This document shows, one piece after another, positions 12,308 to 45,491 of a DNA stretch of 64,000 bases (position 1 is the stretch's first letter; the number at the start of each line of letters is the position of its first letter). The DNA is from Escherichia phage SR02: the sequence record OQ870566.1. One strand, 5' to 3'. The position numbers were made by a program, and so were the translations under genes. The notes below the pieces were generated by a model. It saw nothing but the letters and a program-made list of their open reading frames with translations, did no database searches and had not been told where the DNA came from.

Positions 12308-12562
12308 ATGAAAGTTAACGAATTGAACAAAACTACCAAGACAGTGAAACTGCACACTCTGAAAAAGGGTGATACATTCCGTTTAGAGGAGAATGGACCA
12401 ATCCACATGGTCTGCACTGCTGAATCTACTAATTGGGTGGAAGTTGCACGAGATCGAGTAGTGTGTGTCAGGCTGGAAGATGGTAATCTGAGTGGTCCGG
12501 TCGAGGGTATTCCTGTTATCCCTGTTAAAGTTGAAGCTAACGTTATTAAGGGTTCTAAATGA
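12308..12562 (+). CDS. small protein, paralog family member
   Basis: LKKGDTFRL ... pattern; tandem with the next two. Confidence 0.5.
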   Translation: MKVNELNKTTKTVKLHTLKKGDTFRLEENGPIHMVCTAESTNWVEVARDRVVCVRLEDGNLSGPVEGIPVIPVKVEANVIKGSK

Positions 12563-12804
12563 AAATCATCCCTAAGAAAAAGGATAATACAGTAAAATTG
12601 GAAACAATTATTCCTGGAAATCCTTTCGTGGTTCAGAACGGAAGCGCCTCTCCTCAGTATTACATGAGGGTTGAAAATGCTTCTTGTAACATCCGTATAG
12701 CCAGTGGTTGGGTTCCTGTGGTAAACCTTTCCACAGGTGTACTATCTGTTAAAGGTCTTGACGATCAGGTAGAAATGATTCGTATGTCAGTGGTTCAGGA
12801 GTAG
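12559..12804 (+). CDS. small protein, paralog family member
   Basis: IIPGNPFVV ... VNLSTGVL. Confidence 0.5.
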   Translation: MKIIPKKKDNTVKLETIIPGNPFVVQNGSASPQYYMRVENASCNIRIASGWVPVVNLSTGVLSVKGLDDQVEMIRMSVVQE

Positions 12805-13058
12805 TGCATATGAGCATTATTAACATTAAAGTTAAAGACAAAGAGGAAAAAATCCTCCGTGTCAGAGATCTAAATATGTCAGATGTGTTTACTCTCCAAG
12901 AGTGCCAGAATCAAAAGGTTTATATGATGACAGCTAAAAGCAGGGGTTGTCAACCTGCTGGAGCTGTTAACTTAGGCACTGGAGAACTGCGTGTCATCTC
13001 TGGTGATATGGTTGTTGGTGAGAAGTTTATTAAGGCTGAAATCATCTTAACTTCGTAG
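12804..13058 (+). CDS. small protein, paralog family member
   Basis: LNMSDVFTL ... VNLGTGEL. Confidence 0.5.
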   Translation: MHMSIINIKVKDKEEKILRVRDLNMSDVFTLQECQNQKVYMMTAKSRGCQPAGAVNLGTGELRVISGDMVVGEKFIKAEIILTS

Positions 13059-13289: not shown

Positions 13290-13523
13290 ATGTCTAAAGT
13301 AAGCGCAATCAATGCAATCCGTCAACCGTTCCAGTTCCAATCCAAATCAACCCAAACCTTCAGTGAGCCTAAGCAGATTCGCTTGGGTGGCACGGAGAAA
13401 ACTGTGTTCGATCTGGCTAAAAACAAGAGCGTTACTGTAGTTGATGGTGGCACTCTGGTTAACGTTTCACATCGTATCCGTACTGGCAAAACTGCCAAAG
13501 ATCGTGCCAAGAAAGGTGAATGA
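13290..13523 (+). CDS. small protein, possible paralog family member
   Basis: AAGGAA RBS; VVDGGTLVNVS. Confidence 0.5.
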   Translation: MSKVSAINAIRQPFQFQSKSTQTFSEPKQIRLGGTEKTVFDLAKNKSVTVVDGGTLVNVSHRIRTGKTAKDRAKKGE

Positions 13524-13789
13524 TGAAAGTAAAAAGAGCAAATGCTCCAATACCAAAAAAGGTCAGGATTGATCAAACGAAACCAGGTGAAGTTGTTCGA
13601 TTTATTGATAGTGAAAAACTCTACCTTGTGAGTAAACTGACCAATTTAGCATCTATCAGTGTTAACGATCCACTGATGCCACAACTCGTATACATAACCA
13701 ATCTTGATACTGGTAATGTTATTGACCTACGACCAGATACTCAGGTTGTTAGAGTTAAAGCTGAATGTGAATACATTGAGGATGTATGA
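13520..13789 (+). CDS. small protein, paralog family member
   Basis: TKPGEVVRF ... TNLDTGNV. Confidence 0.5.
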   Translation: MMKVKRANAPIPKKVRIDQTKPGEVVRFIDSEKLYLVSKLTNLASISVNDPLMPQLVYITNLDTGNVIDLRPDTQVVRVKAECEYIEDV

Positions 13790-14659: not shown

Positions 14660-14684
14660 GACTCTTTTCGGAGAGTCCTTTTTT
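14660..14684 (+). terminator. rho-independent terminator
   Basis: GACTCT-TTTCGG-AGAGTC + CTTTTTT. Confidence 0.5.
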
Positions 14685-15232: not shown

Positions 15233-16432
15233 ATGTTTCCAGTAACATTAGAAGATACTGAAGGTAATGTTTTAACGGTCAACCCTCCTTGTTATGGGTT
15301 CCTTCAGCTTCGCAACTATAACGGTGGCGTTGATGAAGACGATGACGAATATGATGACTACTTCGACCCTAACATGTATGAGGCAACTCATGGGTGGAAT
15401 ATGCACGTTCGAGTGTGGCATGAAGAAGCTAACGTTCGTAGTGCTGATGGGGAAGAGTTCCTGTTAAGCCGAGAGATGGATATGTGTAAAATCAAGCATA
15501 TCTGGAACTCTGGAACTCATATGAAGATGTTAGGTTTTAGACGTTGGCGTGATGAAAAGCATGTAGCTGAAGCTTTAAGTTGGTGTTCGTATGAAGATGA
15601 AGACACACCTCCCAAGAATAACATTGAACGTTGGAACGACAAAAACCCTGAACATCGAACCACACCTCGTGCTGTACTGGAAGCTATGGAAGCATTTGTG
15701 GACAAAGGTCGTCCCTCCTGTTTACGCTGGCACGATAAAGGTTTTATGGGGGTAGCAACTGAGAACATTCCTGCTGATCGTTGTCTGTTCTATTTAATGT
15801 TAGACCGAACCTTCTATTGTGAAGATGAAGAGAGTCAAGTTGAAACCTTCCTTCATAAATGGTTGGTTGAGGGCTGGACAATCCTTCAGGCTTATGTTTA
15901 CTCACGAATGGTTAGCACTTACACTAACCTCTTAGGGGAAACGAAAGCAACTCTGGTTGGTAATGATTGGGATGCTTGTATTTTCCCAGCGTCACTGTTT
16001 ACAGTCGGCATGGCTGATAAATACGCTGAAGCATTTCAAGTTCCTTGGCGTCAACAGTCATATAGAGATGGGTGTGGTCATTTCCGTGATGAAGATTTTA
16101 AGTGGATTCATTATGAGAATGATGAAACAGCAGAGTTACGAGTGAACAACTCAATGTTCTTGCCGGTTATGCACCCTGATCTAGTAAAAGATGAGTCAGA
16201 AATACTCAAAGGTGACAACCTTCTGGTTACCTTTGCTCGTCGGGTATCTAAAGATGAAAGAACAGCTGACAGATTAGTCTACGCTTATCGCGCTGAGACT
16301 AAAGATATGTTCAACATCTACAACATTATTCAGCGATTTAGTAGTGGAACTCTGGACCAAAGTTCGGAGTATTCAGTGATTCCATCCTCTGAGTGGGATG
16401 GTATTATGAGCGGATTATTTTTAGGAAAATAA
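15233..16432 (+). CDS. hypothetical protein (first gene of amidoligase cluster)
   Basis: AGAGG RBS; 399 aa; no motif recognised. Confidence 0.6.
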   Translation: MFPVTLEDTEGNVLTVNPPCYGFLQLRNYNGGVDEDDDEYDDYFDPNMYEATHGWNMHVRVWHEEANVRSADGEEFLLSREMDMCKIKHIWNSGTHMKMLGFRRWRDEKHVAEALSWCSYEDEDTPPKNNIERWNDKNPEHRTTPRAVLEAMEAFVDKGRPSCLRWHDKGFMGVATENIPADRCLFYLMLDRTFYCEDEESQVETFLHKWLVEGWTILQAYVYSRMVSTYTNLLGETKATLVGNDWDACIFPASLFTVGMADKYAEAFQVPWRQQSYRDGCGHFRDEDFKWIHYENDETAELRVNNSMFLPVMHPDLVKDESEILKGDNLLVTFARRVSKDERTADRLVYAYRAETKDMFNIYNIIQRFSSGTLDQSSEYSVIPSSEWDGIMSGLFLGK

Positions 16433-16442
16433 AAGGTTAGTT

Positions 16443-17414
16443 ATGTCAATCTCCACAACGATCGTACCTCTGAATCTTCAACAAGATTTAGGGGAACAGA
16501 AGTTCTTAGGTCGTGGGTGCTTCGGTATCCACAACTACATGCAAGGCCAGTGTGTAAATGATATTAATGGTGAAGTTATAACTGAAGAGGGGCGTTATAG
16601 ACGCTTCAACCGTGATATCAACTTGCAATTGGAGATGTTGAATTACTGGACTCACTCTTTTCACGGTCATATTGCATCTGATATTGAAAAGAACTTGGTT
16701 GAAACAGCAGACATTATGAACTCTATGTCTTGCTATCGTGATGTATTTACGATCACTTCAGCGAATAGTGTTGCTGTCAACCTTCGTGAGCATCCAGCAG
16801 ATCAGATCTTCACAGGACTTATGCTCTTCCGTAGTATTCTGGAAGGGCAATATCGTGGAATGGATTTCCTAGCAGAAGGAATTGAAGACAGGGAAGAGTG
16901 GCTGAAGCGTAAACGCATCGGCATCGCTCTAGTGTTAGCTGGGTTGGGTCGTGACTTCTTCGGTGGATGGTCTCAACGAGGAAGAGCCAATGGGAGTAGT
17001 GAGAGCACCTCTATTGTTATTAACAACAATATGTCAGCAGCAGCATTCCTTCCTTTGGTTGTAGACTCTGATGAATACACGAAGCAAGTGTGGGTTCAAA
17101 ACCCCTTCGGTGTTGGCGACAACGAGAATGGTTATGTTCGTAACCATAACCAAGATGCCTTACGAAGATTTGCTCGTGCTAAAGATCAAGACCCGGACGA
17201 GTATGAAACAATGTCAGAGTGGTTAAGACTCTGGTCCAACTGTTATGGTCACAAACGTGAAGCAATAGACGACAAGTTGGGAAACATTACAGTACAAAAC
17301 TTTACAGCCCGACTAATTCAGCGTACTGGTCCAAGCTCTGGCCTTACTACTGAAGAAGTTGGTAACACAATCTCATCTCTCTTTTCTGAACTAGTGGAGT
17401 ATTACAATGACTAA
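16443..17414 (+). CDS. hypothetical protein
   Basis: 323 aa; tightly packed with neighbours. Confidence 0.6.
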   Translation: MSISTTIVPLNLQQDLGEQKFLGRGCFGIHNYMQGQCVNDINGEVITEEGRYRRFNRDINLQLEMLNYWTHSFHGHIASDIEKNLVETADIMNSMSCYRDVFTITSANSVAVNLREHPADQIFTGLMLFRSILEGQYRGMDFLAEGIEDREEWLKRKRIGIALVLAGLGRDFFGGWSQRGRANGSSESTSIVINNNMSAAAFLPLVVDSDEYTKQVWVQNPFGVGDNENGYVRNHNQDALRRFARAKDQDPDEYETMSEWLRLWSNCYGHKREAIDDKLGNITVQNFTARLIQRTGPSSGLTTEEVGNTISSLFSELVEYYND

Positions 17415-18213
17415 GCGCAAATTCCTTATCGGCTCTGACCCTGAAATGTTTGTTCGTACCAGCAATGGTATTATCACCTCTGTGGCTGGTCTGTTAGGCT
17501 GTTCTAAGGACGATAAGATCACTCTGGCTAAGGATGTTCGTCTTCAAGAGGACAACGTACTGGCTGAGTTTGATATTGACCCACAGAGCGGCTTTGAGGC
17601 GTTTAACGATAACATGCAACGTGGTATCGATCTCACCAACAATGTCCTGAACAAACTGGACATGGAAACAGCTCCGGGTGTTAGCTCTCACATCTTCACT
17701 GAAGAAGAGATGAAGACTTTCAACGAATCAGCGTTCATCTTCGGGTGTACTCCTGATTTCAACGCTTTCACTGGTCAGAAGAATCCATCCCCGACTTCTC
17801 AGAATAAAGGGCTTCGTACTGCCGGTGGTCACGTACATCTCGGCGTAGTTGGTGCTTTGGATATTACTTTGCAAACTCAGATGATGCTGGGTGTGCTGTG
17901 TGACTACTTCCTGTCCCTCCCAGCAGTTATTATGGATAAAGATACTCGCCGTAAAGAACTGTACGGCAAAGCTTCTGCAATCCGTTATAAAGACTATGGT
18001 ATTGAATACCGTTCACTGTCTAACTTCTGGATTAGTGATCGTGAAAACCGTAAGTTTGTTTACGATCAGGTTGACAAGGTTGTTCAGCAGTGTGATATGT
18101 CCACTCTGATGGCATTGCACTCTCGCCTTCCGATTGAGAAGCTTCATGAAATCATTAACGGCAACAACGTTAAAGAAGCGGACCAGCAGATCAAACTCCT
18201 TCAGGTAGCATAA
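17407..18213 (+). CDS. amidoligase-like protein (divergent GS-like COOH-NH2 ligase paralog)
   Basis: GSDPEMF and GGHVHLG motifs resemble the amidoligase core; divergent. Confidence 0.45.
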   Translation: MTKRKFLIGSDPEMFVRTSNGIITSVAGLLGCSKDDKITLAKDVRLQEDNVLAEFDIDPQSGFEAFNDNMQRGIDLTNNVLNKLDMETAPGVSSHIFTEEEMKTFNESAFIFGCTPDFNAFTGQKNPSPTSQNKGLRTAGGHVHLGVVGALDITLQTQMMLGVLCDYFLSLPAVIMDKDTRRKELYGKASAIRYKDYGIEYRSLSNFWISDRENRKFVYDQVDKVVQQCDMSTLMALHSRLPIEKLHEIINGNNVKEADQQIKLLQVA

Positions 18214-18222
18214 GAGGTTATC

Positions 18223-18840
18223 GTGAGCTTAGTAGCTGATTTTTCTCATTACTATAATGGTACATGGATTGCTAAACGAGCAGGTAATATCAACCTTCCA
18301 TGTTTTGTGATTGGTGTTGAGCAGAGCGGTAACTTCCGCAGCGATGACTTCTCTCACGAAGCAGAGCAGGCTCTGTATTTTGTTGTAGAGCAGTGGTACA
18401 AGAATGAGCAAGGGAATCTTCGAAACACTACGATGAATATTCCAGTGTTCGACCCAACCTTGATTCTTGAATCACCTGATGTTGGTTATCTGTTCCATAA
18501 CGGTAACACTGTAAGCTGGACTCATATTAACCCTGTTCGTCAGAGAGCAAAGGGTTTGATGGGTAATAAGATTCGAAATGCTCCGGGTGTTGGTCGTGCC
18601 ATCTCCGGGGAGATGGTTTACAGCCTGTTCAATCCTGAATTCGAGGGATTGGTTACTCGTTATATTTACATCAACCCTACTGATGGTAAGGTGCATTATA
18701 AAGGTGCACTGGTAGGACAAGTAGATCTGGAAGCACCTCGTGACTCTTACGGTCAGCAATCAATGCGACTTCTGGAACACTTTCATCACATTTCTGAAAA
18801 CCTTAGCAATTACAATATTACGTTGGTGGATTCGTTATGA
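18223..18840 (+). CDS. hypothetical protein
   Basis: GTG start with AAGAGG RBS. Confidence 0.5.
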   Translation: MSLVADFSHYYNGTWIAKRAGNINLPCFVIGVEQSGNFRSDDFSHEAEQALYFVVEQWYKNEQGNLRNTTMNIPVFDPTLILESPDVGYLFHNGNTVSWTHINPVRQRAKGLMGNKIRNAPGVGRAISGEMVYSLFNPEFEGLVTRYIYINPTDGKVHYKGALVGQVDLEAPRDSYGQQSMRLLEHFHHISENLSNYNITLVDSL

Positions 18841-19940
18841 CAACTGTAGCGCAAACTTTTGGATATCGAGAAGGTCGTTTAACTGAGGCGCATAGTTCAA
18901 TTGCACTTCAGTGCGGTGTCGGTATTGAACTTGAACTCGAAGGTTCCGATCATATCGAAGCAGATATGTGGGATTGTACAGAGGATGGTTCCCTGCGTAA
19001 TGGTTGTGAAATGGTATGTTCACGACCTTACAACGGACAGGAGTTGTTAGACGCTATCAACAACCTGAGTGAAGCAGTAGCTGAATCGCACGCCGAGGGG
19101 ACTTGGCGTTGCTCTACTCACGTTCATATGGATATGAGGGATGCTGATAGTAATATCCTCAAGAAAACCATTCTCGCTTGGACCTTCTATGAAAAGATGT
19201 TGTTCAAGTGTTCAGGCTATCATCGTTACCGTAGCAACTTCTGCCCTGCGTTTGCAGTGGTACAAGCACAGGTAATGAATGCCTCTGACGCATTTAACTA
19301 CGACGATGAAGAGTTCTTCAACCGTCTGGTTCGTTCATGGGATAAGTATACATCCCTGAACCTTCTGCCACTTGCCCAATACGGTTCGATTGAATTCCGT
19401 ATCAGTGAGCCTAAGTGGAAACGTGGTCAACTTCTCAATCTGGTTAACCGCTTCTTGATGTTGAAGAAGCTGGCTTTAGATAACGCAGAGATGAGCAATG
19501 ATCAGTTTATTGAGCATTTAAATACTGTACGATTTGCCCCAATGCTTCCTTACCTTCCTCTGGATTACAATCTGGACGAATCGGATTTGCATTCAGGGTA
19601 TTGTATGGCCCGTGATGTTTTGTATTGCCGTTCTCATGGAGTAGAGCAGTCTGGTCGTATTCGTTTACGTCGAACCAACTCCAACGGAGAAGTTCTTGTT
19701 GACTTACGTCTTATCTCAGACTTCTACGGATTCCTTGGATATGTACGAGGGAACGCTAACAACTTGTACCAAGAGATTCTGGTTATGCTTCGTACAACTG
19801 ACCTATCTACTGTACGATCTGCACCAGAGCAACGTATCCGTGCTATTTTTGACTTACTGCGTGAGTCAGGTCACAGTGATAGCAATATCACAGGGTACAT
19901 TCCAGATCATCTGGAAAATCAGTTAGAGCAAGCGCTGTAA
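18837..19940 (+). CDS. putative amidoligase (glutamine-synthetase-like COOH-NH2 ligase)
   Basis: GVGIELELEG and CSTHVHMDM motifs. Confidence 0.55.
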   Translation: MTTVAQTFGYREGRLTEAHSSIALQCGVGIELELEGSDHIEADMWDCTEDGSLRNGCEMVCSRPYNGQELLDAINNLSEAVAESHAEGTWRCSTHVHMDMRDADSNILKKTILAWTFYEKMLFKCSGYHRYRSNFCPAFAVVQAQVMNASDAFNYDDEEFFNRLVRSWDKYTSLNLLPLAQYGSIEFRISEPKWKRGQLLNLVNRFLMLKKLALDNAEMSNDQFIEHLNTVRFAPMLPYLPLDYNLDESDLHSGYCMARDVLYCRSHGVEQSGRIRLRRTNSNGEVLVDLRLISDFYGFLGYVRGNANNLYQEILVMLRTTDLSTVRSAPEQRIRAIFDLLRESGHSDSNITGYIPDHLENQLEQAL

Positions 19941-20019
19941 TCAATGGGTGCCTCTGATAAAGGGGCACAATTTAAAGGTTAATTAGATGAAAGGGTTTAC
20001 CCTTCAGGTGGATTAGAAA

Positions 20020-22050
20020 ATTTGTGGCATCGTATTAGCTGGCGGTAATCTGTCAAGCACTGATTTAGATGTATTCAACCAACTCTTTTATGCTGGAGTG
20101 TTCCGAGGACAACATTCCTCTGGTATCTTTGGTCAGCGTAAGAGCACTAAGGAAGTCTTCACCTATAAAGAAGCCCTTCCTTCTTTCGCATTCATCCTTC
20201 AAGATGAGTACAAGAAGCACACCACTGGTGAAACAGCTTACACTGTAGCACCTTCATGGATTGTTGGTCATAGCCGTCATGCAACGAAAGGTGCAGTTAA
20301 CGCCAAGAACGCCCATCCTTTCCAACATGGTAACATCACTCTGGTTCATAACGGAACCTTGATGGACCAAGATCTGTTACCTGACAGCAAAAACTTCGAG
20401 GTAGACAGTGAGAACATCTGCCACTCTATTAACACTATTGGTGCAGCAGAGACTATTCAAAAGCTGGATGGTGCTTTCACCTTAATCTGGCATGATGCTT
20501 CTGACAACCGTCTTCATATCATCCGTAACGAAGAGCGTCCATTCCATCTCGCACGTTGTAACAGAGATTGGTTTGGTGCTTCTGAAGAAGACATGTTGAT
20601 GTGGATTCTGAAGCGTTCTAAGTCTCACAAGAACCGTATTGATGAGCACTTTGAATGTAAAGTTGGTACAGAGTATATCTTTGACATGTCAAACAACAGT
20701 ATGACTCTAGTTGAAGAGGTCGCCCACGAGCTTCCGGTTTTTACGGTAATCAATCGTTGGGGCAATTACTACTCGAACAACTACAGCCAAAGCAATTATC
20801 AAAGTTCCTCAAAAAGCAGTACAAGCAATCCTTACGACACGAAGCCGGGAGTGACAGCGGCAGACGTTCGTCGAAGAAACGCAGTGGTAAGTCAAAACAA
20901 AATCGCAAGCGATCGAAACATTGATATTCGCCGCGATATGACTGTGGAAATCACACCACATGAGTTTATTCCTTATGCAACTGCTGGTGCTGTTCCTTCT
21001 CGTGGTAAGATGATCGGTTATATCTACGATGAGAAGTCTCAAGAGTATATCGAAGGTGATGTTCATAACGTAGACATTAAGGCTTATCAGGATGCCCTGA
21101 AAGACCCTAAAATTGTTTACCGTGGGACAGTATCCTGTATCTCCGAAGTTAATGCTATGGTTCGTTTAGTGATCACAGCAGGTCGTTTTGTTGACCCATC
21201 TCTGGAGAAAAAGGAGCCTGAGTCTACTACTGCTGACTTTGATGATGATATCCCTTTTGATATGAATGATAGTTTCGTCAATAAGAATGGCGTTACTATC
21301 ACTCGTAAATTCTGGGAAGCACACTCTCATGGCGATTGCGGTGGTTGTGACAAACACATTGATTGGAAGGATGCACCTAAAGCAGTCTTCGCATATCAGT
21401 GCTATTGGCACCCTGAATGTCTGGAAGGTTTGACTAAACCTAAAGATGAAGAAGAGGAGGAAACTCCTATTGGTGTTTGTGAAATCTGCGGTGAAGTTAA
21501 AACAGAGAACGAGTTCGATGATGAACTTAGTCGTCTTCGTGGTGAAGATATCTGTAAAGTCTGCGCTGTAGATGTAAAGAAGAAAGTATCTAATGCTACA
21601 ATCAAAGATGGTTATGTCTGGATTAAAGCAACAGATACAACAAACGCCCGTCGTCCTGAATTTGCTTTACGTGTAACTGAAGATATGATTGGTCGTATGA
21701 CTGTATTACCTTCCTCAGCGAAACAGACAGGCATCACTCTGGAGGATGTTGTTGACGCTTATGTTGAGAAACGTAGCAACAGTATTTTTGCAATCTCAAC
21801 TAAGCCAAAAAAGGAGGAACCTGCTGAGAAAGCAGGTGTGTTTCCTGAATCACGAACAGCTCTCCGCAAAACTGTTGTCAGCTTCGACGGAAACCGAAGC
21901 ACTGACTTCACCAAAGCCATGTGGTCAACCCTCGGCTACTGCTCAGAGTGTTTTAAGCAGATTCCGTGGCGCGATGCTGAAAGTTGTACGCTTGGTTCTA
22001 TGAATCAAGTTTATTGTAATTCTCCTAAATGTTCATTGAATAGAGGTTAA
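20020..22050 (+). CDS. class-II (Ntn) glutamine amidotransferase with C-terminal Cys-rich metal-binding region
   Basis: CGIVLAGG...RGQHSSGIFG...GHSRHATKG...NAHPF...VHNGT; catalytic Cys codon at 20023 lies upstream of the first canonical start (GTG 20098); start drawn at ATT 20020 with AGGTGG RBS. Confidence 0.65.
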   Translation: MCGIVLAGGNLSSTDLDVFNQLFYAGVFRGQHSSGIFGQRKSTKEVFTYKEALPSFAFILQDEYKKHTTGETAYTVAPSWIVGHSRHATKGAVNAKNAHPFQHGNITLVHNGTLMDQDLLPDSKNFEVDSENICHSINTIGAAETIQKLDGAFTLIWHDASDNRLHIIRNEERPFHLARCNRDWFGASEEDMLMWILKRSKSHKNRIDEHFECKVGTEYIFDMSNNSMTLVEEVAHELPVFTVINRWGNYYSNNYSQSNYQSSSKSSTSNPYDTKPGVTAADVRRRNAVVSQNKIASDRNIDIRRDMTVEITPHEFIPYATAGAVPSRGKMIGYIYDEKSQEYIEGDVHNVDIKAYQDALKDPKIVYRGTVSCISEVNAMVRLVITAGRFVDPSLEKKEPESTTADFDDDIPFDMNDSFVNKNGVTITRKFWEAHSHGDCGGCDKHIDWKDAPKAVFAYQCYWHPECLEGLTKPKDEEEEETPIGVCEICGEVKTENEFDDELSRLRGEDICKVCAVDVKKKVSNATIKDGYVWIKATDTTNARRPEFALRVTEDMIGRMTVLPSSAKQTGITLEDVVDAYVEKRSNSIFAISTKPKKEEPAEKAGVFPESRTALRKTVVSFDGNRSTDFTKAMWSTLGYCSECFKQIPWRDAESCTLGSMNQVYCNSPKCSLNRG

Positions 22051-22052
22051 GT

Positions 22053-22286
22053 ATGGAAATTCGTAAGATGATGCTGGATAACGTTGTAACTACTCGACGT
22101 ATCCCGATGACGAGCACAGGATGTGATAACCTTCGTGCAATCCAGAAGTGGATGCAAGCTGGTATTGGTCAAGTACTTGAGACACAGGTTGAGGTTCCTT
22201 TCCCAACGGTGATCAATAACGTACTTGCTGATTATGTAAAAATCAAAGGCATTAAGGTAGAACCTCATGTCAAATCTGGTTCCTAA
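22053..22286 (+). CDS. hypothetical small protein
   Basis: ATG 3 nt after the amidotransferase stop. Confidence 0.4.
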   Translation: MEIRKMMLDNVVTTRRIPMTSTGCDNLRAIQKWMQAGIGQVLETQVEVPFPTVINNVLADYVKIKGIKVEPHVKSGS

Positions 22287-22491
22287 GAAACCGAAGATCA
22301 CTCTCCTACAATATTACATAGGAGTTCATATCGAATTAGTAACGGAGCAGCGAAAGCTGTATCCGTTCGCTTTCGGTCTGATTGATGCACCATCCGATGA
22401 AGTAGAGAACGACGCGTTCAACGACTACTTCGAAATTGAAGCTCAGATTCAAAAAACTCGTAACGAAATTCTTAAACTTAAAGGTATCTAA
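22267..22491 (+). CDS. hypothetical small acidic protein
   Basis: Overlapping start. Confidence 0.4.
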   Translation: MSNLVPKKPKITLLQYYIGVHIELVTEQRKLYPFAFGLIDAPSDEVENDAFNDYFEIEAQIQKTRNEILKLKGI

Positions 22492-22493
22492 CA

Positions 22494-23690
22494 ATGACTA
22501 CTCGTATCCGTGTTCTTCCTTATGGCCCTTCTGATTCAGTTCGTGAACTTACTTCTGCAATTAACACTAAGATTCAGGAACTTCGACTAAATGCTAACGT
22601 AATGTCTCTGGTATCAGAAGGCTCTCGTTATCGTTCTCGTGTTGGTGATATTGTTGTCAACTACGGAAACCGTCGATACAACGACTCTTTCTTTGGTGGC
22701 GCAACTGTGTTGAACTCTGTGGTTGCCTTGAACCGAGCGGCTAACAAAGTTGCAGCATTTAACGCACTGCGTTTAGCTGAAGTCAAAACTGTTGAATACA
22801 CCGTCGATCGTGAAGTAGCTCAGAACTGGAACCGGAATGAAATTGTTTATGAACGTGGAACCTTAACTGGTCACTCTGGAGAAGGTATTACTGTTCGTCT
22901 TACGCGAGAAGGTGTTGCGGATGCTCCTCTATACACCAAAGGCATCCAAGGCCCACGTCGTGAATGGCGTGTTCATGTGTTCGAAGGTGTTATCACTTAC
23001 GTTCAGAAGAAGATTCGTCGTAATGGTTATCGTGAACTGGAAAGTTATCGTGAAGATATTCGTAACCATCACACTGGTTGGGTTTATTCTAACTCCTTCA
23101 CTGAAGCGCCTCCTGATCAAGTTCTTATTCAAGCTCACAAAGCTGTATCTGCTCTGGGTTTGAACTTCGGTGCTGTTGACCTGATTAGCAAAGGTACTAA
23201 CGCATGGGTTCTGGAAGTTAATACAGCTCCGGGCCTGACTGGCACAACTCTGGAAACCTACACTCACAACATCGTTGAGTTTGTTAAGAGTTTCTCTGGT
23301 GTTGATCCTGACTACCGCGTTGCTTACGAACTGCCTGTTGAAGAAGTGGAAGAAGAATTTGCTGAATCGGCAGATGACGAAAACTTTGCATTGGCAGCTG
23401 AGCCAGTTGCTGAAGAGTCTTCGGAGCCTGTTCCTGAAACAATGCAAGTTGAAGAACAAGGGTTAGAGATCAACCCGGTAACCCGTCGTAATCTGCGTCG
23501 TGGTTATTATATCGCTAACATCAAGCATCCTGAAAACGGTTCGACTGTAGCAAGTAACGTGATCTTGTTCTTCTGTGGTCGTAACTTCTACCGCTCTGGA
23601 TGGAACGCACCAATTAGTGATCGTCAGCTTGGTCGTGTGTTGCAGATTAATAGCCTTACCCTGAATGATGGCACTGTTGTAAACTACTAA
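22494..23690 (+). CDS. ATP-grasp family ligase (RimK-like) with acidic C-terminal extension
   Basis: ATP-grasp core including WVLEVNTAPGL. Confidence 0.7.
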   Translation: MTTRIRVLPYGPSDSVRELTSAINTKIQELRLNANVMSLVSEGSRYRSRVGDIVVNYGNRRYNDSFFGGATVLNSVVALNRAANKVAAFNALRLAEVKTVEYTVDREVAQNWNRNEIVYERGTLTGHSGEGITVRLTREGVADAPLYTKGIQGPRREWRVHVFEGVITYVQKKIRRNGYRELESYREDIRNHHTGWVYSNSFTEAPPDQVLIQAHKAVSALGLNFGAVDLISKGTNAWVLEVNTAPGLTGTTLETYTHNIVEFVKSFSGVDPDYRVAYELPVEEVEEEFAESADDENFALAAEPVAEESSEPVPETMQVEEQGLEINPVTRRNLRRGYYIANIKHPENGSTVASNVILFFCGRNFYRSGWNAPISDRQLGRVLQINSLTLNDGTVVNY

Positions 23691-23696
23691 GGATAT

Positions 23697-23945
23697 ATGG
23701 ATATGTTTTCATTGGAAGATCTAGTACAAAATGGAATGATGGAACAAAAAGAGCCTCTGATTGTAGGCTCTCGTAAAGAGTTGCGTAAATTGTGTGAGGA
23801 GTGGGGTATTACTAATCAGCGAATGATTGGTAATCAATTCTCTGCAATTGTAACTTTCCTAAAACGTGGTGATAAGTATTCTATGGAATGTGTAGAACGT
23901 ATCATCGCTGAAGCACAACAAGATAAAGGAGTAACATATCTGTGA
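23697..23945 (+). CDS. hypothetical small protein
   Basis: AAGGA RBS. Confidence 0.4.
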   Translation: MDMFSLEDLVQNGMMEQKEPLIVGSRKELRKLCEEWGITNQRMIGNQFSAIVTFLKRGDKYSMECVERIIAEAQQDKGVTYL

Positions 23946-24148
23946 ATAAGTATAAAGTCCTGTTTAAAGATACCAATGCAGCTGGCGAAATGCGAGCAAT
24001 GGATATTGACGCTGAATACTTCCGAAGTGAGCTTGATCAGATAGTATTCTATGAGCGCGGTAGTCGACCTGCTAATGAATCAGAAGTTATTGCTTCATTC
24101 GGTAAAGAAGCAATCTGCGGTGTAATCAAAATCTTTATTACAGAGTAA
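23942..24148 (+). CDS. hypothetical small protein (GTG start)
   Basis: ORF-track only. Confidence 0.3.
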   Translation: MNKYKVLFKDTNAAGEMRAMDIDAEYFRSELDQIVFYERGSRPANESEVIASFGKEAICGVIKIFITE

Positions 24149-24217
24149 TCTGCTCTAGTCTCTTCGAAAGAGGAGGCTAGTTCGGATAAACTAAACAAAC
24201 CAACAAAGGTATAGATA

Positions 24218-24637
24218 ATGTCAGAAGTAATTTACGTAGCAACTTATGGTTCTCTTCGTCGTGGTCAAGCTAACTATCTAGTTAATGACCGAGCTGGTGC
24301 TAAGTCAATTGGTGAAGGTTGGACTGAAGACAACTTTGATCTGTTCCGCTATGGTGGTTCCTACTTCCCAAGCATCTCTCTCGCACACAGCAATAACAAT
24401 AAGCCTGTTCGTGTAGAAGTGTTTGCTACTGACAAAGCAGGTCTGGAAGGTCCATACGATCGTCTGGAAGGTTACAATAAACGTAGCCCTGAAGATAGCT
24501 TCTATCAACGAACTCAGATTGCCGTTAAGCTGGACTCAGGTGAAACTGTTATCGCTTGGATTTATCACATTGACGAAGAACAAGATGTTCTGGTTGAATC
24601 TGGCGACTGGTCAGAGTATCTGAAAAGTGAATCTTGA
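24218..24637 (+). CDS. AIG2/gamma-glutamyl cyclotransferase-like protein
   Basis: ATYGSLRRG and LDRLEGY motifs. Confidence 0.55.
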   Translation: MSEVIYVATYGSLRRGQANYLVNDRAGAKSIGEGWTEDNFDLFRYGGSYFPSISLAHSNNNKPVRVEVFATDKAGLEGPYDRLEGYNKRSPEDSFYQRTQIAVKLDSGETVIAWIYHIDEEQDVLVESGDWSEYLKSES

Positions 24638-24830
24638 GAAAAGACAGGCTCTTCGGAGACTTGAAGCCAAATACTTAATGCTACGGTGCAAAATCAACCG
24701 ACATGAACGTTTCGTTGAAGCTGCACAATCTAAAAACTTTGAATCATCAGTGGAGATGTTCAAGACCCAACTTTCTTTTTATAGGAAAGAACAGGAACAA
24801 GTGTGGGATGAAATTCGTTCGTTCTACTAA
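24627..24830 (+). CDS. hypothetical small protein
   Basis: ORF-track only; GTG start. Confidence 0.3.
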   Translation: MNLEKRQALRRLEAKYLMLRCKINRHERFVEAAQSKNFESSVEMFKTQLSFYRKEQEQVWDEIRSFY

Positions 24831-24856: not shown

Positions 24857-26647
24857 ATGTCAAAGATCATTTTGGGAGACACAGGTTGTAAGGAATGTAT
24901 CTCTCATGGTCGTGATAAAACCCACAACCACATGATTCTCTTCCGTAACGAAGAGACAGGTGAGGAGTGGGGAAGTTGTAACCGTTGTGGGAATTACGAA
25001 GTGTTCGAAAAGGGCACTACACCTACTCCAAACGAGAAGAAAGAGTTGTCCCCTGAAGAGTTAAGAGAAGTCTTAGATGATTGCTTAGAGCTTCCTCAGG
25101 GTGAACTCACTCGACGTTTAATCCCTAAAGCCGTATCAGAGCGTTTTGAGTGTCGCATTGGTCTAAGTCAGACTGATGGTCAGACTCCAGACAGCTACTT
25201 CTTTCCTCGTGAACGTGATGGAAACATTGTCGGTTATGAGGTTAAGCTGCTTGACAGTAAGAAGTTCTATTACGTTGGCAGTGTGAAAGAAGCAGATTTA
25301 TTTGGTATGGCACAGGCTCAGCGTGGTGATGTGTACAACAAGAAGCTCTTCATTTTTGAAGACCCGCTATCTTGTATGTCTGGTTTCCATGTCCTTACAG
25401 CTTTTACAAATGCAACAAACATTAAACCAGCATGTGTTTCTTTACCGTTCGGTGCAGGTTCAATCTCTTCTGTGTTGTCTCGTAATCGAGACTTCGTAAA
25501 TGGTTTTGAGGAGGTTGTGCTCTGCATGGACAACGATGATGCAGGTGAGATAGCTTTAACAAAAGGTCGTTCTTTATTCCCTCATGTTAAATTTGCTCGT
25601 ATCCCTAAAGGAACTTTCCCATACAACGGTGTGGAGAAAGAGATTAAGGATGCGAATGACATGCTTCTGTCTGGTCGTGGTCAAGAGTTATTCAACATTC
25701 TCAAGTACTCAGCAAAGCGGGAATCTCCTGCTGGAGCTGTAACAATCTTTGATTGCCTTGATGATGCTCTGAAGAAAGCGGAGTGGGGTATCCCATATCC
25801 GTGGAAGACTCTGAATGAGATGACCTTCGGTATTCGATGGGGAGAGGTGGTAGCAATCGGTGGTGGTGTAGGTAGTGGTAAAACATTAATTGCTCACGAA
25901 CTTGTTGCTCATCTGTGCTTAGAGCATGGTTTTAATGGAGGTGGCTTCTTCTTGGAAGAGAAGGTAGGCATGTCTGTTAAGAATATCGCTGGTAAGTCAG
26001 CATCAATCCCTTTCCACCGACCTGATGTTGAATATGACGAGGAGGATTTGCGTAATGAAGCACTTCGTTATGCAGACAAATTCTTCTTGTATGACAACTT
26101 CGGGCAGAATGAATGGGAAGACATTAAACAGTGTATCCGTTTCTGGGTAGTTGAAAACCAGTGTAAGTTCATCATCCTTGATAACATTACCGCTCTGGTA
26201 TCTCATTTAACACCTTCAGAAATTAACACCGAAATTAGTAAGATTGCTTCCGAGCTTGCTGGTATGTGTAAAGAGTTAGACTTTACCGCTTTCGTACTAT
26301 CTCACCTTAATGCTCCGGCAGGTGGTGCTCCTCACGAAGAAGGTGGACAGGTACGTGAAGTCCAGTTCACTGGCTCTCGTTCTCTTATGCGTTGGTGTCA
26401 GTGTATCATTGGCTTTGAGCGTGACAAGCAAGCTGATGGCTTAGCTAAGAACCTCTCAGTCATTCGATTACTGAAAGAACGTAATTACGGTCAGACGGGT
26501 GTCTGCTATACTAAGTATATCAGTGAAACCGGTAGACTTGTAGAAAGGGAAGACTTTGAAGTTGATGAAGATAATCCATTCGTTTTAACTAACGGAGAGG
26601 ATGCAGCTTCTCTCGTCAACCAAGCAGATGGAGCTTCACCGTGGTAA
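24857..26647 (+). CDS. DNA primase/helicase (T7 gp4-like)
   Basis: N-terminal Zn finger CKEC...CNRC, TOPRIM-like region, Walker [10 protein letters not shown]. Confidence 0.85.
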
Positions 26648-27195
26648 AGAAAAAGAAAGTGTTTGCATTCGATATCGAGAGTAATGCACTGTACGATGAC
26701 ATAACTAAAGTGTGGTGTATTTACATCTTCGATGTTGAAACTGGTGAAAGGTGGGGCTATCGGCCTCACCAAATTGAAGATGGGATTCGTAAACTTACAG
26801 AAGCTGATGTGCTCGTAGGTCATAATATTATTGACTTCGACCTTTGTGCTCTGAAGAAGATGTATCCCAATCTGATCGACTATCGTTTTAACGTCTTTGA
26901 CACTTTATGTCTTAGTCGATATCTTAAACCTGACCGTATTGGTGACAGTCCTGAGTATCCGAAAGGCGACCCTAGACATGGCCCAAGAGGTCATGGCTTG
27001 AAGCAATGGGGTGAGTTCTTAGAGGAACTTAAAGGTGACTACGGTGAGCAAGAGGAAGCATGGGATGCTTTCACTGAGGATATGTTTACTTATTGTGAAC
27101 AGGACGTTAACTTAACTGTTAAGGTTTATCTTTTCTTGTGTGAACTCACGGGATTTGACCCTTACGACCCACCTTCATTATATTGGAAAATGTAA
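26641..27195 (+). CDS. DNA polymerase 3'-5' exonuclease domain protein (split family A polymerase, N-terminal part)
   Basis: FDIESN, HNIIDFD, YCEQDV exo motifs aligned by eye to T7 polymerase residues 1-190. Confidence 0.8.
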
Positions 27196-27196
27196 A

Positions 27197-28495
27197 ATGA
27201 TTGTTATCCCGATTAACCGAATTGAAGATAAGGTTGCTCAACAACCTGATATCACTGTTGGTCGTCACTTTATTGAACAGTTGATTAACAACAACTTGAT
27301 TCCAGATTGTATTTGTCCCATCATCACTGGTGGGGCTGTTCGTGATGCTGTTCTTAATAATAGAGCACCTCATGACATTGATATCTTTATTGTCAGAGGA
27401 CAGGCACCAAGAACCCAAAATACTTTTATCCATCATGACCAGTGGCAAGATCTCGGACGAGAGGTTGAAAGTAATGTGAAAGAGTGGCTCGAGTCTCAAG
27501 ATATTGAGTACTCTTCCCTTCTTGCTGAATCTACAGATGAGCCGTATACTGGGACTTCTCAACTAACATTCACTGATATTATTGAGTTTCAGTGGAATGG
27601 GGTTCGTATCCAATTCATGTTTAACTATCCTACTTCTATTGAAGAGGTATTGGATAATTTTCCTATGATGTGTCGTGGTGCGATGACTCTTGACAAGCTG
27701 TTCATGACCCCCCATGGATATTTGTCTATGACCTCTCCTTGTCCAGTAGTTGTCTCTGGTCGTGAAATCAAGTATGTTCACAAGAAGTGGCCTAATTCAC
27801 AGGTATTAAGATTCTCCTCTCCATCTGTTGCATACCAATATATGGCACAATCTCGATATCTTCCTACACCTCAACCAGTTAATCATCTGGTCAACGAACG
27901 AGGTCAGGTTGCTCTTATTGAGGATACAACAAGTGCTCAGTATTGTGTTGACCGTGACATGAGTCGATTCTTTGGAATCCCTTATGAAGAGATTCAGTTA
28001 ATGTCAAGCACACATGGCTCTAGCCAGATTCATGCGTATTGGTCTGAAGGGTTGACAAATTTAACAACTAACACGGGTGGTGATCTACTTGGTCGAGAAG
28101 AGGAACCTAACCGACACAATGCAATTGAAGGGGTGTTTGTAGCCCCTGCAATGCGTAGAGCACAAGAGTCACGAAGAGTAAGCCCTACTCGTAGAACATC
28201 TTTTGAAGAAGCTCTTGGTATTACAAGAGATTCTATGGAGAGATGGATGGCTAGCACCTCTCGTGGTCGACCAAATGGTTTGACTGTCAGCCGTCATCAG
28301 TTCTCTGGTCAGGGCTTTGCTGTTGGCGATCTTGATATTCCTTCTCATGGTGAGCTGGCTGAGACTGTCAGTCGCAGTCTCGCTGATCGCTTTGTTGCTA
28401 ACAACCCTGAAGTATTAGAACCTCAAACCCGTACAGTTCGGTTTGCTGATGAAGCGGGTCGTGGAATCTCTTTTGACGTAGAAACAAATAACTAA
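27197..28495 (+). CDS. nucleotidyltransferase (pol-beta superfamily, CCA-adding/poly(A)-polymerase-type head) with unknown C-terminal extension
   Basis: GGAVRDAVL...HDIDIF motif. Confidence 0.55.
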   Translation: MIVIPINRIEDKVAQQPDITVGRHFIEQLINNNLIPDCICPIITGGAVRDAVLNNRAPHDIDIFIVRGQAPRTQNTFIHHDQWQDLGREVESNVKEWLESQDIEYSSLLAESTDEPYTGTSQLTFTDIIEFQWNGVRIQFMFNYPTSIEEVLDNFPMMCRGAMTLDKLFMTPHGYLSMTSPCPVVVSGREIKYVHKKWPNSQVLRFSSPSVAYQYMAQSRYLPTPQPVNHLVNERGQVALIEDTTSAQYCVDRDMSRFFGIPYEEIQLMSSTHGSSQIHAYWSEGLTNLTTNTGGDLLGREEEPNRHNAIEGVFVAPAMRRAQESRRVSPTRRTSFEEALGITRDSMERWMASTSRGRPNGLTVSRHQFSGQGFAVGDLDIPSHGELAETVSRSLADRFVANNPEVLEPQTRTVRFADEAGRGISFDVETNN

Positions 28496-28504
28496 GGAAT
28501 AAGA

Positions 28505-29059
28505 ATGAGTTTACTAGGAAGCCCAGAGTTACATAAACTAATTGATGATGGTGTTATTGATGCACCACACTCAGCTGTTAACTCCTCCAGCATTGACGTC
28601 CGTATTGGAGATCGTGTTCTGATGGAAGGTGCAGCTAATGGGGTTGTTGATATCTCTGCTAAAGAATCTCCTAACTTCAACGAGGTTATGATTCCAGAGG
28701 AAGGGTTGGTGATCAAACCGGGTGAGTGTTTCTTGGCTCATACAGTGGAGACATTCAATCTTCCAGACAACATTAGCTGTGACTTCATGCTACGATCTAC
28801 TGTCGGTCGTTGCTTCTTAGAGCACATGCACGCTGGTCATGCAGATGGCGGTTGGCATGGCAGTCAGTTAACTATGGAATTCAAGAATGTCCTACAACAT
28901 CACTCTCTTCTGATCAAGCCGGGGATGCGTATTGGTCAAATGGAGTTCTTTAAACACTCCTCATCCGAAGAGGACAGTTACGCAACGAAAGGTTCATATA
29001 ATAACCAACAAGGGCCGACAAAAGCTTTTGGTGGAACAAACCATGCTGATATGCTATGA
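28505..29059 (+). CDS. dCTP deaminase/dUTPase-family protein
   Basis: SSIDVRIG, RSTVGR, ADGGWHGSQLTMEF motifs. Confidence 0.65.
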   Translation: MSLLGSPELHKLIDDGVIDAPHSAVNSSSIDVRIGDRVLMEGAANGVVDISAKESPNFNEVMIPEEGLVIKPGECFLAHTVETFNLPDNISCDFMLRSTVGRCFLEHMHAGHADGGWHGSQLTMEFKNVLQHHSLLIKPGMRIGQMEFFKHSSSEEDSYATKGSYNNQQGPTKAFGGTNHADML

Positions 29060-29552
29060 TGAAGTAGTTGACCTCTTTAATATAGACATGTCAGCACCTT
29101 CAGGGCTTTCTTGGAAAAGGAAGCCTAGTAAGTTTGCTAATGATATAGTAGGTAAACCTGCTGGTAAGCTCACAAAAGATGGATATTATCAAATTCCCTT
29201 AGGAGGAGTTCGTGTCCATAATCATAGGATTCTTTTTGTTCTTTATACTGGTGAGGATTTATCGGATGAATATCAAATAGATCATGCTGACGGTAATAGA
29301 GAAAACCTAGAAGAAACTAACCTGAGAAAATGCTCTCACTCTGAGAATAGTCAGAATGCTAAGACAAGGGTTGATAACAAACTAGGAATCAAGAATGTCT
29401 ACCGAGAGAAAGGTGGAACGTTCTGTGTATCTGTTCAAAAAGACGGTAAACGTGAGTCTGTATATGGGGTGAAAACTCTTGAAGAGGCTAAGATTTTGGC
29501 TAAGTCTATGAGAAGTAGACTTCATCTCTCCTTTAATGTGGATGAAAGATAA
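29043..29552 (+). CDS. HNH homing endonuclease with C-terminal AP2-like DNA-binding domain
   Basis: YQIDHADGNRENLEE...HSEN HNH motif; AP2-like VYREKGGTFCVSV. Confidence 0.7.
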   Translation: MLICYDEVVDLFNIDMSAPSGLSWKRKPSKFANDIVGKPAGKLTKDGYYQIPLGGVRVHNHRILFVLYTGEDLSDEYQIDHADGNRENLEETNLRKCSHSENSQNAKTRVDNKLGIKNVYREKGGTFCVSVQKDGKRESVYGVKTLEEAKILAKSMRSRLHLSFNVDER

Positions 29553-31664: not shown

Positions 31665-32321
31665 ATGAATGAACAACTACAAGCAACATTAATCGAAGCT
31701 ATGGGAAGTGATCGTAGCGTAGTAAACGCAGCTCGAGTTTCCTTTGGCGTAACCCGTGAAGGTGATTTAAATGAACGTGATGAACGTCTCATCAACTTCC
31801 TCGCAAGAGAGAAGCATGTCACGCCTTTCAGGCACCCGCAAGTCAGTTTCCGATGCAAAGCACCTATCGCAATTGCGAGACAGTTGGGCAAGCATCAGGT
31901 TGGATTCTCGTGGAACGAAATGTCCCGGCGGTATAAAGATGGAGCAGTTGAAGTCTTCATCCCTAAAGAGATTTTTGCGAGACCTTCGGACCTCCATGCA
32001 GGTTCAGGGATTCAACTCATCGACGGAGAGCGAGCTGAAGCATTAATGCTGATTAACGATGCATATGAAGCTTCTCTAGCAGCATATGACAAGTTGATTG
32101 AATTTATTGCACCAGAGCAAGCTCGATTTGTTCTTCCTCAGGGGATGATCACTGAGTGGGTATGGACTGGTTCTTTATATGGCTGGTTTGAGTTATGTCG
32201 TCAGCGACTCTCCTCTCACGCTCAATATGAAGTTCGAGTGTTTGCTAAATCTCTGGATGAAGAGATGGCTAAACTTTACCCAATCTCATGGGCAGCTCTG
32301 AAGAAAACTTTGGAGAATTAA
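31665..32321 (+). CDS. thyX: ThyX-like flavin-dependent thymidylate synthase with divergent signature
   Basis: AARVSFG...HVTPFRHPQVSF...SWNEMSRRY; canonical RHR replaced by KHQ. Confidence 0.65.
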   Translation: MNEQLQATLIEAMGSDRSVVNAARVSFGVTREGDLNERDERLINFLAREKHVTPFRHPQVSFRCKAPIAIARQLGKHQVGFSWNEMSRRYKDGAVEVFIPKEIFARPSDLHAGSGIQLIDGERAEALMLINDAYEASLAAYDKLIEFIAPEQARFVLPQGMITEWVWTGSLYGWFELCRQRLSSHAQYEVRVFAKSLDEEMAKLYPISWAALKKTLEN

Positions 32322-43105: not shown

Positions 43106-44597
<1,492 letters not shown>

Positions 44598-44601
<4 letters not shown>

Positions 44602-45491
44602 ATGAAGAGGTAAAAGCTTTAAAGAAAGCTCTTGCAATTAAAATCAAACATTTAAATTTCGTCAGAGATGAGTTGGAGGAGCTATCCAACTTATCAGGAT
44701 ATGAGTTACAGAATGAGCTTGTAGAGTTTCAAATCAATATTGATGGCGGTAAATACGTAGAAACAACTAGAGCGATTTTACCTAAAGTTACTGGTAACAA
44801 AACTCCTCCAATAGACTACTCACATGACCACATGGAGCAATTAGAAATGGAATCTCAAGGCAATCCAGCACTGACCAATATGGTGGGAGGTTCTCACTAT
44901 AAGCCTTTAGTAGTAATTCTTAATGGGCCTCCGGGTTGTGGTAAAGATACGATAGCCAATGCTTGGGTCAATGCACATTCATACCATCACAATCATTTAA
45001 CCAAATCCTTCAAGGAGCCGATGTATAGAGTGGCTGCTGCTGCACTAGGAATGCCTCTAGAAAACTTCCTAGCACGCTATGAAGATCGTGAATGGAAAGA
45101 AAAATCTAGACCAGAGTGGGGAGGGAAGTCTGTAAGAGATTTGATGATTTCTACAAGTGAAGACTTCTTAAAACCTATGTTTGGCAACAATCATATGGGG
45201 AATCTCGCTGTAAAGAGCATCAAACAAGAGGAGTTAGGTCAGGATGACATTATTGTTTTTACTGACGGAGGTTTTGATGCAGAGGTACGAGAACTAGAAA
45301 AGAATTTCAATGTCCAAGTTGTCCAAGTGCTTAGGGATGGTTGTTCTTTCGATGGAGACTCTCGCTCGTACATTGAAGGGGAGCAGAGAAAAACATATCT
45401 GCTGTTTAATGACTCAACTATTGAATCAGCAGTGTCAGATTTAGATTGGATTATATCTCAAGCTCAGGATGATATTTATGGAAGACGTTAA
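44598..45491 (+). CDS. P-loop kinase (dNMP kinase-like) with N-terminal coiled-coil extension
   Basis: Walker A NGPPGCGKDT. Confidence 0.55.

Follow-up and report, generated by a model that had tools for sequence, protein, structure and literature searches.

What does a phage make with three ligases, an amidotransferase and a cyclotransferase encoded side by side? The question is raised by positions 15233-24830 of Escherichia phage SR02 (sequence record OQ870566.1), of which a stretch of 64,000 nucleotides, called the window below, was analysed. For a phage such a set is a large coding cost, and the question of its substrate has stood since 2009. An initial annotation of the window had described nine to ten tightly packed plus-strand genes as a candidate multi-enzyme system for amide-bond modification. 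The genes lie where it placed them, co-oriented and tightly packed, although the block in fact holds 13 open reading frames (ORFs), with spacing from a 20-nt overlap to a 79-nt spacer. The idea of a multi-enzyme amide-bond system is supported: the proteins have significant profile matches, and about 40 loci of many phage lineages show strict co-conservation and synteny of the genes. We tentatively favour the reading, possible rather than probable, that the block encodes a pathway which would attach, modify and release gamma-glutamyl groups on a soluble low-molecular-weight substrate with an amine or a carboxylate.

By its sequence the window is assigned to a Kuravirus, a phiEco32-like podophage of E. 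coli. A sequence search with the 9.4-kb region matched 98 phage records, all of them phiEco32-like podoviruses of E. coli or Shigella (Kuravirus, Gordonclarkvirinae). The region is covered to at least 80% by 65 of the 98, and the best matches, including phiEco32, NJ01 and SU10, are 95-97% identical. Identity to phiEco32 is 95.4% across 99% of the length, and the block 15233-24830 corresponds to phiEco32 gp88 down to gp76. The gp numbers are those of the LAMP gene labels, whose numbering seems to be that of phiEco32. LAMP, a Kuravirus with a reduced genome of about 68.5 kb, was considered as a natural deletion of the cassette and rejected, as it retains gp77-gp88.

As a computational prediction the system has been described before. 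The SR02 block is the same thing as the phiEco32-type cassette (Iyer, Abhiman, Burroughs & Aravind 2009; Hardies et al. 2013): the Pfam families are the same, PF14395 itself being named 'Phage phiEco32-like COOH.NH2 ligase', the gene order is that found in LUZ24-like phages, Lahexavirus, Grimontviridae and marine podoviruses, and there is no difference of substance. Iyer et al. 2009 and Hardies et al. 2013 are credited with describing the cassette, and with proposing cell-wall or peptidoglycan modification as its function, by which superinfection would be prevented; carriers named are phiEco32, 7-11, PA11, tf, MR299-2, LUZ24, PaP3 and CW02 (PMC10580990, PMC5498523). Hardies 2013, as cited by others, placed a 'peptidoglycan modification cassette' in phiRIO-1-like, LUZ24-like and phiEco32-like podoviruses. 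Genome papers only annotate the cassette genes, and no experimental work on the cassette was found in the literature, where Iyer 2009, Savalia 2008 and Hardies 2013 are known to us second-hand. The statement of the initial annotation that such systems had been predicted computationally with no defined substrate is thus accurate. New here are the X1/X2 family and the finding that Peptidase_C26 can stand in its place, a description of X3, the ATT start of the amidotransferase gene and the arguments against a DNA target.

Homologues were surveyed by tblastn against 50,697 phage records, by a scan of IMG/VR and by iterated hidden Markov model searches over 47 loci; the 47-locus counts given throughout include some incomplete loci. 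The features of the block are as follows.

15233..16432, plus strand: X1 (gp88 position), 399 aa, predicted fast-evolving X2 paralogue; phrog_13063 only; 10 of 47 loci
16443..17414, plus strand: X2 (gp87 position), 323 aa, member of a cassette-specific family; N-terminal Cys (CFG), PAD motif
17407..18213, plus strand: COOH-NH2 ligase type 2 (gp86 position), 268 aa; PF14395, phrog_3815
18223..18840, plus strand: X3 (gp85 position), 205 aa, probably non-catalytic small beta-barrel protein
18837..19940, plus strand: Amidoligase_2 (gp84 position), 367 aa, glutamine synthetase (GS)-like ligase; PF12224
20020..22050, plus strand: class-II (N-terminal nucleophile, Ntn) glutamine amidotransferase (GATase; gp83 position), 676 aa; GATase_6; ATT start
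22053..22286, plus strand: DUF7195 small protein (gp82 position), 77 aa; PF23825
22267..22491, plus strand: X4 (gp81 position), 74 aa, lineage-specific; phrog_13464 only; 10 of 47 loci
22494..23690, plus strand: RimK-like ATP-grasp ligase (gp80 position), 398 aa; phrog_2599
23697..23945, plus strand: gp79 homologue, 82 aa; position and length match LAMP gp79; 11 of 47 loci
23942..24148, plus strand: X6 (gp78 position), 68 aa, lineage-specific; phrog_8591; 8 of 47 loci
24218..24637, plus strand: GGACT/AIG2-type gamma-glutamyl cyclotransferase (GGCT; gp77 position), 139 aa; PF06094
24627..24830, plus strand: X7 (gp76 position), 67 aa, last small ORF ahead of the primase/helicase gene (24857-26647); phrog_10819; 7 of 47 loci

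Among the 13 proteins there is no signal peptide and no membrane segment. A PADLOC search of the block proteins gave no match, which indicates that they are unrelated to known defence-system proteins. From sequence, the block is assigned as a phiEco32-type amidoligase cassette, a phage-specific set of predicted soluble cytoplasmic enzymes.

The enzyme families can be named with curated profiles. The families proposed earlier for the amidoligases, the GATase and the GGCT all pass the Pfam thresholds, and the catalytic residue sets are kept in about 30 non-redundant members per enzyme family. The product of 17407-18213 matches COOH-NH2_lig (PF14395) with 34.1 bits against a cut-off of 25 (E 2.2e-8) and phrog_3815 at 3e-118. 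More than 50 of its positions are at least 85% conserved in 29 non-redundant members, including GSDPE and GGHVH and, besides these motifs, many charged positions; the protein at the gp86 position is classified by these features as a carboxylate-amine ligase related to gamma-glutamylcysteine synthetase 2 (GCS2). The product of 18837-19940 matches Amidoligase_2 (PF12224) with 33.8 bits against a cut-off of 22 (E 4.1e-8), and its invariant motifs ExExE (E31/E33/E35), RCSTHxHxD and ExFR are of the metal- and ATP-binding kind. A PDB sequence search with these two GS-type ligases gave no match.

The third ligase, at 22494-23690, was called an ATP-grasp protein in the initial annotation, and this holds: it matches phrog_2599 at 9e-188 and the NCBIfam models MptN (4.5e-7) and RimK family (1.5e-6), it matches Ddl and RimK structures in PDB around EVNTAPG, and E241 and N243 are conserved together with K, R and D positions. 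Its Pfam scores stay below the cut-offs (RimK 16 bits against 21). The tail consists of a lineage-specific acidic linker and an 82-aa C-terminal domain, and minimal homologues stop directly after NTAPG. For the gp80-position protein the predicted ATP-grasp superfamily is clear and the subfamily is not. The cyclotransferase at 24218-24637 matches GGACT (PF06094) with 63.8 bits against 22.8 (E 2.8e-17); both YG(S)L and the catalytic-type Glu (E84) show conservation across 23 non-redundant members, and a motif first read as LDRLEGY is YDRLEGY.

The GATase (GATase_6, 55 bits against a cut-off of 27, E 1.1e-14) starts at an ATT codon at 20020, giving MCGIV, with the Shine-Dalgarno sequence GGTGGA upstream and an in-frame stop two codons upstream. 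The automated ORF list begins this gene at GTG 20098, which would lose the nucleophile Cys. MCG is found in 46/46 GATase ORFs that include the N-terminus. The ATT start is kept in all 7 Gordonclarkvirinae-type loci (L001, L006-L010, L014), down to about 70% protein identity, and the remaining 39 of these ORFs start with ATG. The conservation of ATT suggests a deliberately weak or regulated translation initiation.

A single GATase N-terminal sequence gave no match to PDB, and the family profile was needed. This profile aligns from Cys1 to the glutaminase domain of E. coli GlmS (1xff, E 1.4e-14) and also reached PurF. C1, R85, N110-G111 and D128 are invariant in 10 diverse members and aligned with the GlmS residues. 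According to established structural work on GlmS and PurF, the corresponding Arg, Asn-Gly and Asp of GlmS hold glutamine by its free alpha-carboxylate and alpha-amino group. Residues from about 262 to 676 gave no significant Pfam or PDB match, and no fused acceptor or synthase domain of known type (phosphoribosyltransferase, SIS, PP-loop, GltB) was matched in this tail, which consists of a family-specific conserved middle domain and repeats of a zinc-ribbon-like module. The tail, for which at least five CxxC pairs had been noted, contains four CxxC pairs in the strict sense together with a Cx5C and a Cx4C pair, or about three zinc-ribbon-like modules. The module is single in most lineages and repeated in Kuravirus and Lahexavirus.

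Among the remaining proteins X2 is the most informative. It has an invariant Cys (CFG) near the N-terminus, the PAD motif and many conserved polar residues, and is a candidate thiol enzyme. An exhaustive search found the family in 22 clusters among 1.8 billion representatives, so that it is genuinely small; a profile from a poor X1/X2 alignment had retrieved only 16 proteins. The X2 model (predicted template modelling score 0.77) had no fold match in PDB, and in BFVD it matches only proteins from cassette-bearing phages. X1 has no Pfam, NCBIfam or PADLOC match. Comparison of X1 and X2 with hhalign gave 82.5% probability (E 1e-5) over 162 columns including the PAD motif, and the X1/X2 pair of Aeromonas phage LAh_6 is also related (4e-6). 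By profile comparison X1 is classed as a paralogue of X2, in a cassette-specific family without a fold match.

An X2-family protein is encoded directly upstream of the COOH-NH2 ligase in most lineages. Four metagenomic phage lineages carry instead of X2 a gamma-glutamyl hydrolase of the Peptidase_C26/class-I GATase type (Pfam 1e-18 to 1e-21), at the following positions of their loci.

L030, 3940-4596: Peptidase_C26 gene at the X2 position
L034, 1603-2316: Peptidase_C26 gene at the X2 position
L035, 7607-8215: Peptidase_C26 gene at the X2 position
L039, 7766-8491: Peptidase_C26 gene at the X2 position

Read as a non-orthologous displacement, this suggests that the role of X2 may be the removal or transfer of a gamma-glutamyl group.

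X3 is conserved across lineages, with only seven positions conserved family-wide. Its model shows small SH3/Tudor/KOW-like barrels, and the segment best conserved in close kuravirus-type homologues is predicted to be disordered; X3 is probably a non-catalytic adaptor or subunit. The DUF7195 protein (PF23825, 61.9 bits against 27, E 4.7e-17) lies between the GATase and the ATP-grasp genes in 24 loci of Kuravirus, LUZ24-like phages, Lahexavirus and Grimontviridae and is possibly a small bridging subunit.

The amidoligase was found in 302 and the COOH-NH2 ligase in 306 of the phage records, which puts the cassette in about 0.6% of sequenced phage isolates. Per 47 loci the core genes are present as follows: ligase 43, X3 43, amidoligase 46, GATase 46, ATP-grasp 43, GGCT 38 and DUF7195 24. 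About 40 loci share the core order [X2]-ligase-X3-amidoligase-GATase-(DUF7195)-ATP-grasp-GGCT in synteny. They come from phage lineages that are not related to one another, with genomes of 38-110 kb, among them Kuravirus, C3-morphotype phages of Salmonella, Cronobacter and Proteus, LUZ24-like Pseudomonas phages, Aeromonas Lahexavirus, Vibrio Grimontviridae and marine podoviruses of about 40 kb. Downstream of the cassette there are usually primase/helicase, exonuclease and PolA genes. The amidoligase subfamily comprises 297 homologues, and among the 120 listed almost all lie on phage-sized contigs. Carriers include therapeutic candidates against E. coli and Pseudomonas as well as abundant marine podoviruses. 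In Aeromonas phage LAh_6 (L003:15130-18268) the cassette is followed by a ribose-phosphate pyrophosphokinase-like and a nicotinate phosphoribosyltransferase gene, a pair that by sequence resembles a nicotinamide adenine dinucleotide (NAD) salvage or NAD-reconstitution pair.

From the enzyme identities, the intact active sites, the co-conservation, the synteny and the expression (see below) we infer an order of steps, roles for X1, X2, X3 and DUF7195, and the nature of the substrate. Three ATP-dependent carboxylate-amine ligases, the GCS2-like gp86, the GS-like gp84 and the RimK-like gp80, would form glutamate-type amide bonds. The Ntn GATase gp83 would deliver ammonia from glutamine, or cleave a gamma-glutamyl amide. 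The GGACT-type cyclotransferase gp77 would take off the gamma-glutamyl group as 5-oxoproline, and a similar part in removal is probable for the Cys-bearing X2/X1 family. X3 and DUF7195 would be non-catalytic subunits, holding the enzymes together or presenting the substrate.

GGACT, Peptidase_C26 and class-II GATases all require a glutamyl head group with free alpha groups. Therefore a small gamma-glutamyl-X compound fits better than a residue within a polymer. The recognisable enzyme families handle free glutamate, free glutamine or gamma-glutamyl-X, the GATase keeps its binding residues, and there are variants with Peptidase_C26; for these reasons a pathway with a small substrate is favoured. 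The cassette pairs a gamma-glutamyl-type ligase with a remover: GS- and GCS2-like ligases occur together with a GATase-II and a GGACT enzyme, and in variants with Peptidase_C26.

The same attach-modify-release logic is known from the Puu (PuuA/PuuD), Ipu, ergothioneine (EgtA/EgtC) and butirosin (BtrJ/BtrG) pathways, where a GS-like, GCS2-like or ATP-grasp ligase is paired with a remover of the class-II GATase-like, Peptidase_C26 or GGCT type. The cassette differs from these in having no oxidase or other transforming enzyme, no carrier protein and no transporter, in having three ligases, and in being restricted to phages. No cassette protein passes the curated cut-off of the PuuA, EgtA/EgtC or BtrJ/BtrG families; EgtC alone appears, at 2.5e-4 and with 20 bits against 219, and the others gave no match.

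Several points speak against a small-molecule pathway. No experiment, product or substrate was found in the literature, and no enzyme was identified that would 'modify' the protected intermediate, unless it is X1 or X2. Three ligases exceed the needs of simple gamma-glutamyl protection, the GATase zinc ribbons and the SH3/Tudor-like barrels in X3 more closely resemble macromolecule-recognition modules and are the main pointers to a macromolecular target, and the benefit to a lytic phage is unexplained. Furthermore, Iyer 2009 and Hardies 2013 preferred a cell-wall peptide as the target (as cited in PMC10580990 and PMC5498523).

According to that published prediction, the ligases would add or amidate residues on the cytoplasmic precursor of the murein stem peptide, at the carboxylates or amines of gamma-D-Glu or meso-diaminopimelate, while GATase and cyclotransferase would trim or recycle murein peptides. 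The outcome would be an altered envelope, so that for example superinfecting phages are excluded or lysis is tuned. GATase-coupled amidation of stem peptides does exist (MurT/GatD, AsnB1/LtsA), ATP-grasp ligases act on cell-wall precursors (Ddl, D-Asp ligase), and the hosts named among the 302-306 cassette records are all Gram-negative, although this restriction may merely mirror the phage lineages involved. The 13 proteins are soluble and without export signal, so that only cytoplasmic precursors would be within reach, and none of the ligases belongs to the Mur family in the Pfam and NCBIfam searches. GGACT enzymes and class-II GATases need a free alpha-amine, whereas the stem-peptide residue is a D-Glu whose amine is acylated by L-Ala. 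With these findings the predicted cell-wall target appears rather unlikely to us.

We give about the same, rather low, credence to a tag on a protein. Here the RimK-like ATP-grasp and PafA-like GS-type ligases would attach glutamate, or else a short gamma-linked peptide, to a protein of the host or the phage, for example one of the ribosome, of transcription or of replication; X3 and the zinc ribbons would recognise the target, and GATase and GGCT would edit the tag. The ATP-grasp enzyme is nearest to the RimK/MptN family, X3 consists of SH3/Tudor/KOW-like barrels, a kind of module that typically binds peptides or nucleic acids, the GATase has its zinc ribbons in repeated form, and the cassette usually adjoins replication genes. 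Peptide tagging was reportedly discussed by Iyer and co-workers in 2009 for related systems. In having a RimK-family-like ATP-grasp and GS-like ligases able to ligate glutamate or a glutamyl carboxylate the cassette resembles RimK, LysX/LysW and PafA/Pup. It differs from them in that no small protein of the cassette has a conserved C-terminal Glu or Gln as in Pup, LysW and S6, and the scores are far below the family cut-offs.

X3 and DUF7195 were considered as LysW- or Pup-like carriers and rejected, since their C-termini vary across lineages: no Glu or Gln is conserved at the C-terminal end of either protein, and DUF7195 has no conserved C-terminal acidic residue. This argues against a carrier-protein tag. 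The GATase moreover retains the residues for binding free glutamine, GGACT and C26 enzymes act on free gamma-glutamyl compounds according to established enzymology, and no target protein was identified.

Modification of DNA, in which the cassette would put a glutamyl or amide group on a phage DNA base or a nucleotide precursor, would explain the resistance of Gordonclarkvirinae to restriction-modification systems by a protected genome. In the BASEL study these phages are remarkably restriction-resistant in vivo with no known modification pathway, and its authors proposed the nucleotidyltransferase and the dCTP deaminase as candidates for a yet unidentified DNA modification. The window retains 27 EcoRV, 9 EcoRI, 9 EcoKI and 89 EcoP1 sites, so that avoidance of sites cannot account for the restriction resistance of kuraviruses. 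Replication genes are close by, amino-acid-bearing thymidines are known from other phages, and the altered signature noted for the ThyX at 31665-32321 is real: compared with solved ThyX enzymes, KHQ stands in place of RHR, and one residue is inserted ahead of the conserved Ser.

The ThyX is otherwise a strong Thy1 match (1.8e-43). The P-loop protein at 44592-45491, cited earlier as compatible with nucleotide modification, is indeed a kinase, but an ordinary deoxynucleoside monophosphate kinase (phrog_139, 3e-54). Together with the dCTP deaminase (28505-29059) these enzymes make up an ordinary set for deoxythymidine triphosphate supply. The dCTP deaminase and the poly(A)-polymerase/CCA-type nucleotidyltransferase (27140-28495) were found in 9/47 and 10/47 loci, respectively, and only in those of the Gordonclarkvirinae type, whereas the cassette is far wider; the nucleotide genes are thus not co-conserved with it.

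The literature describes virion DNA of phage tf, a carrier of the cassette, as cut by RsaI, HpaI, EcoRV, SmaI and HaeIII, then cloned and directly sequenced. In the 64 kb of the window 14/64 six-base palindromes are absent, including the sites of PstI, SacI, KpnI, SmaI, SphI and StuI, and CCWGG is depleted to 9 occurrences, which indicates DNA long exposed to restriction; AT-rich sites are not avoided (EcoRV 27, HindIII 31, HpaI 27). A Pfam scan of the block proteins matched no family of the DNA-binding, glycosylase or transferase type. The thymidine hypermodification clusters of phages SP10, phiW-14, ViI and M6 are likewise multi-gene, lie near replication genes and attach amino-acid-derived groups. 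They use a 5-hydroxymethyldeoxyuridine (5-hmdU) DNA kinase and amino-acid-transferring enzymes, whereas no signature of a 5-hmdU DNA kinase or of aGPT-Pplase was seen in the window proteins scanned, and a ThyA-type hydroxymethylase was not seen among the annotated window proteins. We consider phage DNA an unlikely target, and DNA or nucleotide modification, the link suggested in the initial annotation, is not supported and is the least probable of the alternatives considered, with a very low probability.

A broader version would have the cassette, with X1/X2, produce a gamma-glutamyl-derived compound or adduct on which the broad restriction resistance of Gordonclarkvirinae would rest, either as a new DNA or nucleotide modification or through an anti-restriction mechanism directed by a small molecule or a protein. 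We regard this as improbable, and the cassette as a weak candidate for the cause of the resistance. If it were true, X1/X2 would represent a novel class of thiol enzyme, acting as gamma-glutamyl hydrolase or transferase. Kuraviruses infecting K-12 exist in the BASEL collection and make deletion genetics feasible, by which the restriction resistance of kuraviruses would be explained or else a prime suspect cleared.

An ORF at 28932-29552 overlaps the end of the dCTP deaminase gene; its HNH-like motif would fit a homing endonuclease. HNH insertions near this position vary between relatives, and vB_EcoP_YF01 lists an HNH endonuclease under the match.

With regard to expression, proteomics of SU10 detected peptides of the ATP-grasp, the GATase and the YtfP/GGCT proteins, listed under 'early gene products', as well as a 23.3-kDa hypothetical protein, also 'early', whose size fits X3 (a candidate assignment). 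The protein of 23697-23945, between the ATP-grasp and GGCT genes, has L6, L9, V10 and M14 in agreement with the gp79 residues that contact gp36 in a cryo-electron microscopy study. gp79 inhibits sigma70 transcription and co-activates the phage sigma factor gp36 (PMC8948821, PMC12276001), and was described as the product of a middle gene (PMC8948821). Its homologues are found solely in kuravirus-type loci, and with only 11/47 loci the gene is best seen as an insertion into the cassette, outside its chemistry.

The gp36-type promoter consensus TAATGTATA was not found, with at most 1 mismatch, on the plus strand from 7919 to 29981, and a terminator-like hairpin with a T-run lies at 14660-14677, just upstream of the block. 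The block is therefore probably transcribed from more distant promoters further upstream. Upstream as well, at 12308-13058 and 13520-13789, there are four consecutive similar-looking ORFs of about 81-89 aa, which by their sequences could be tandem paralogues of a small early protein.

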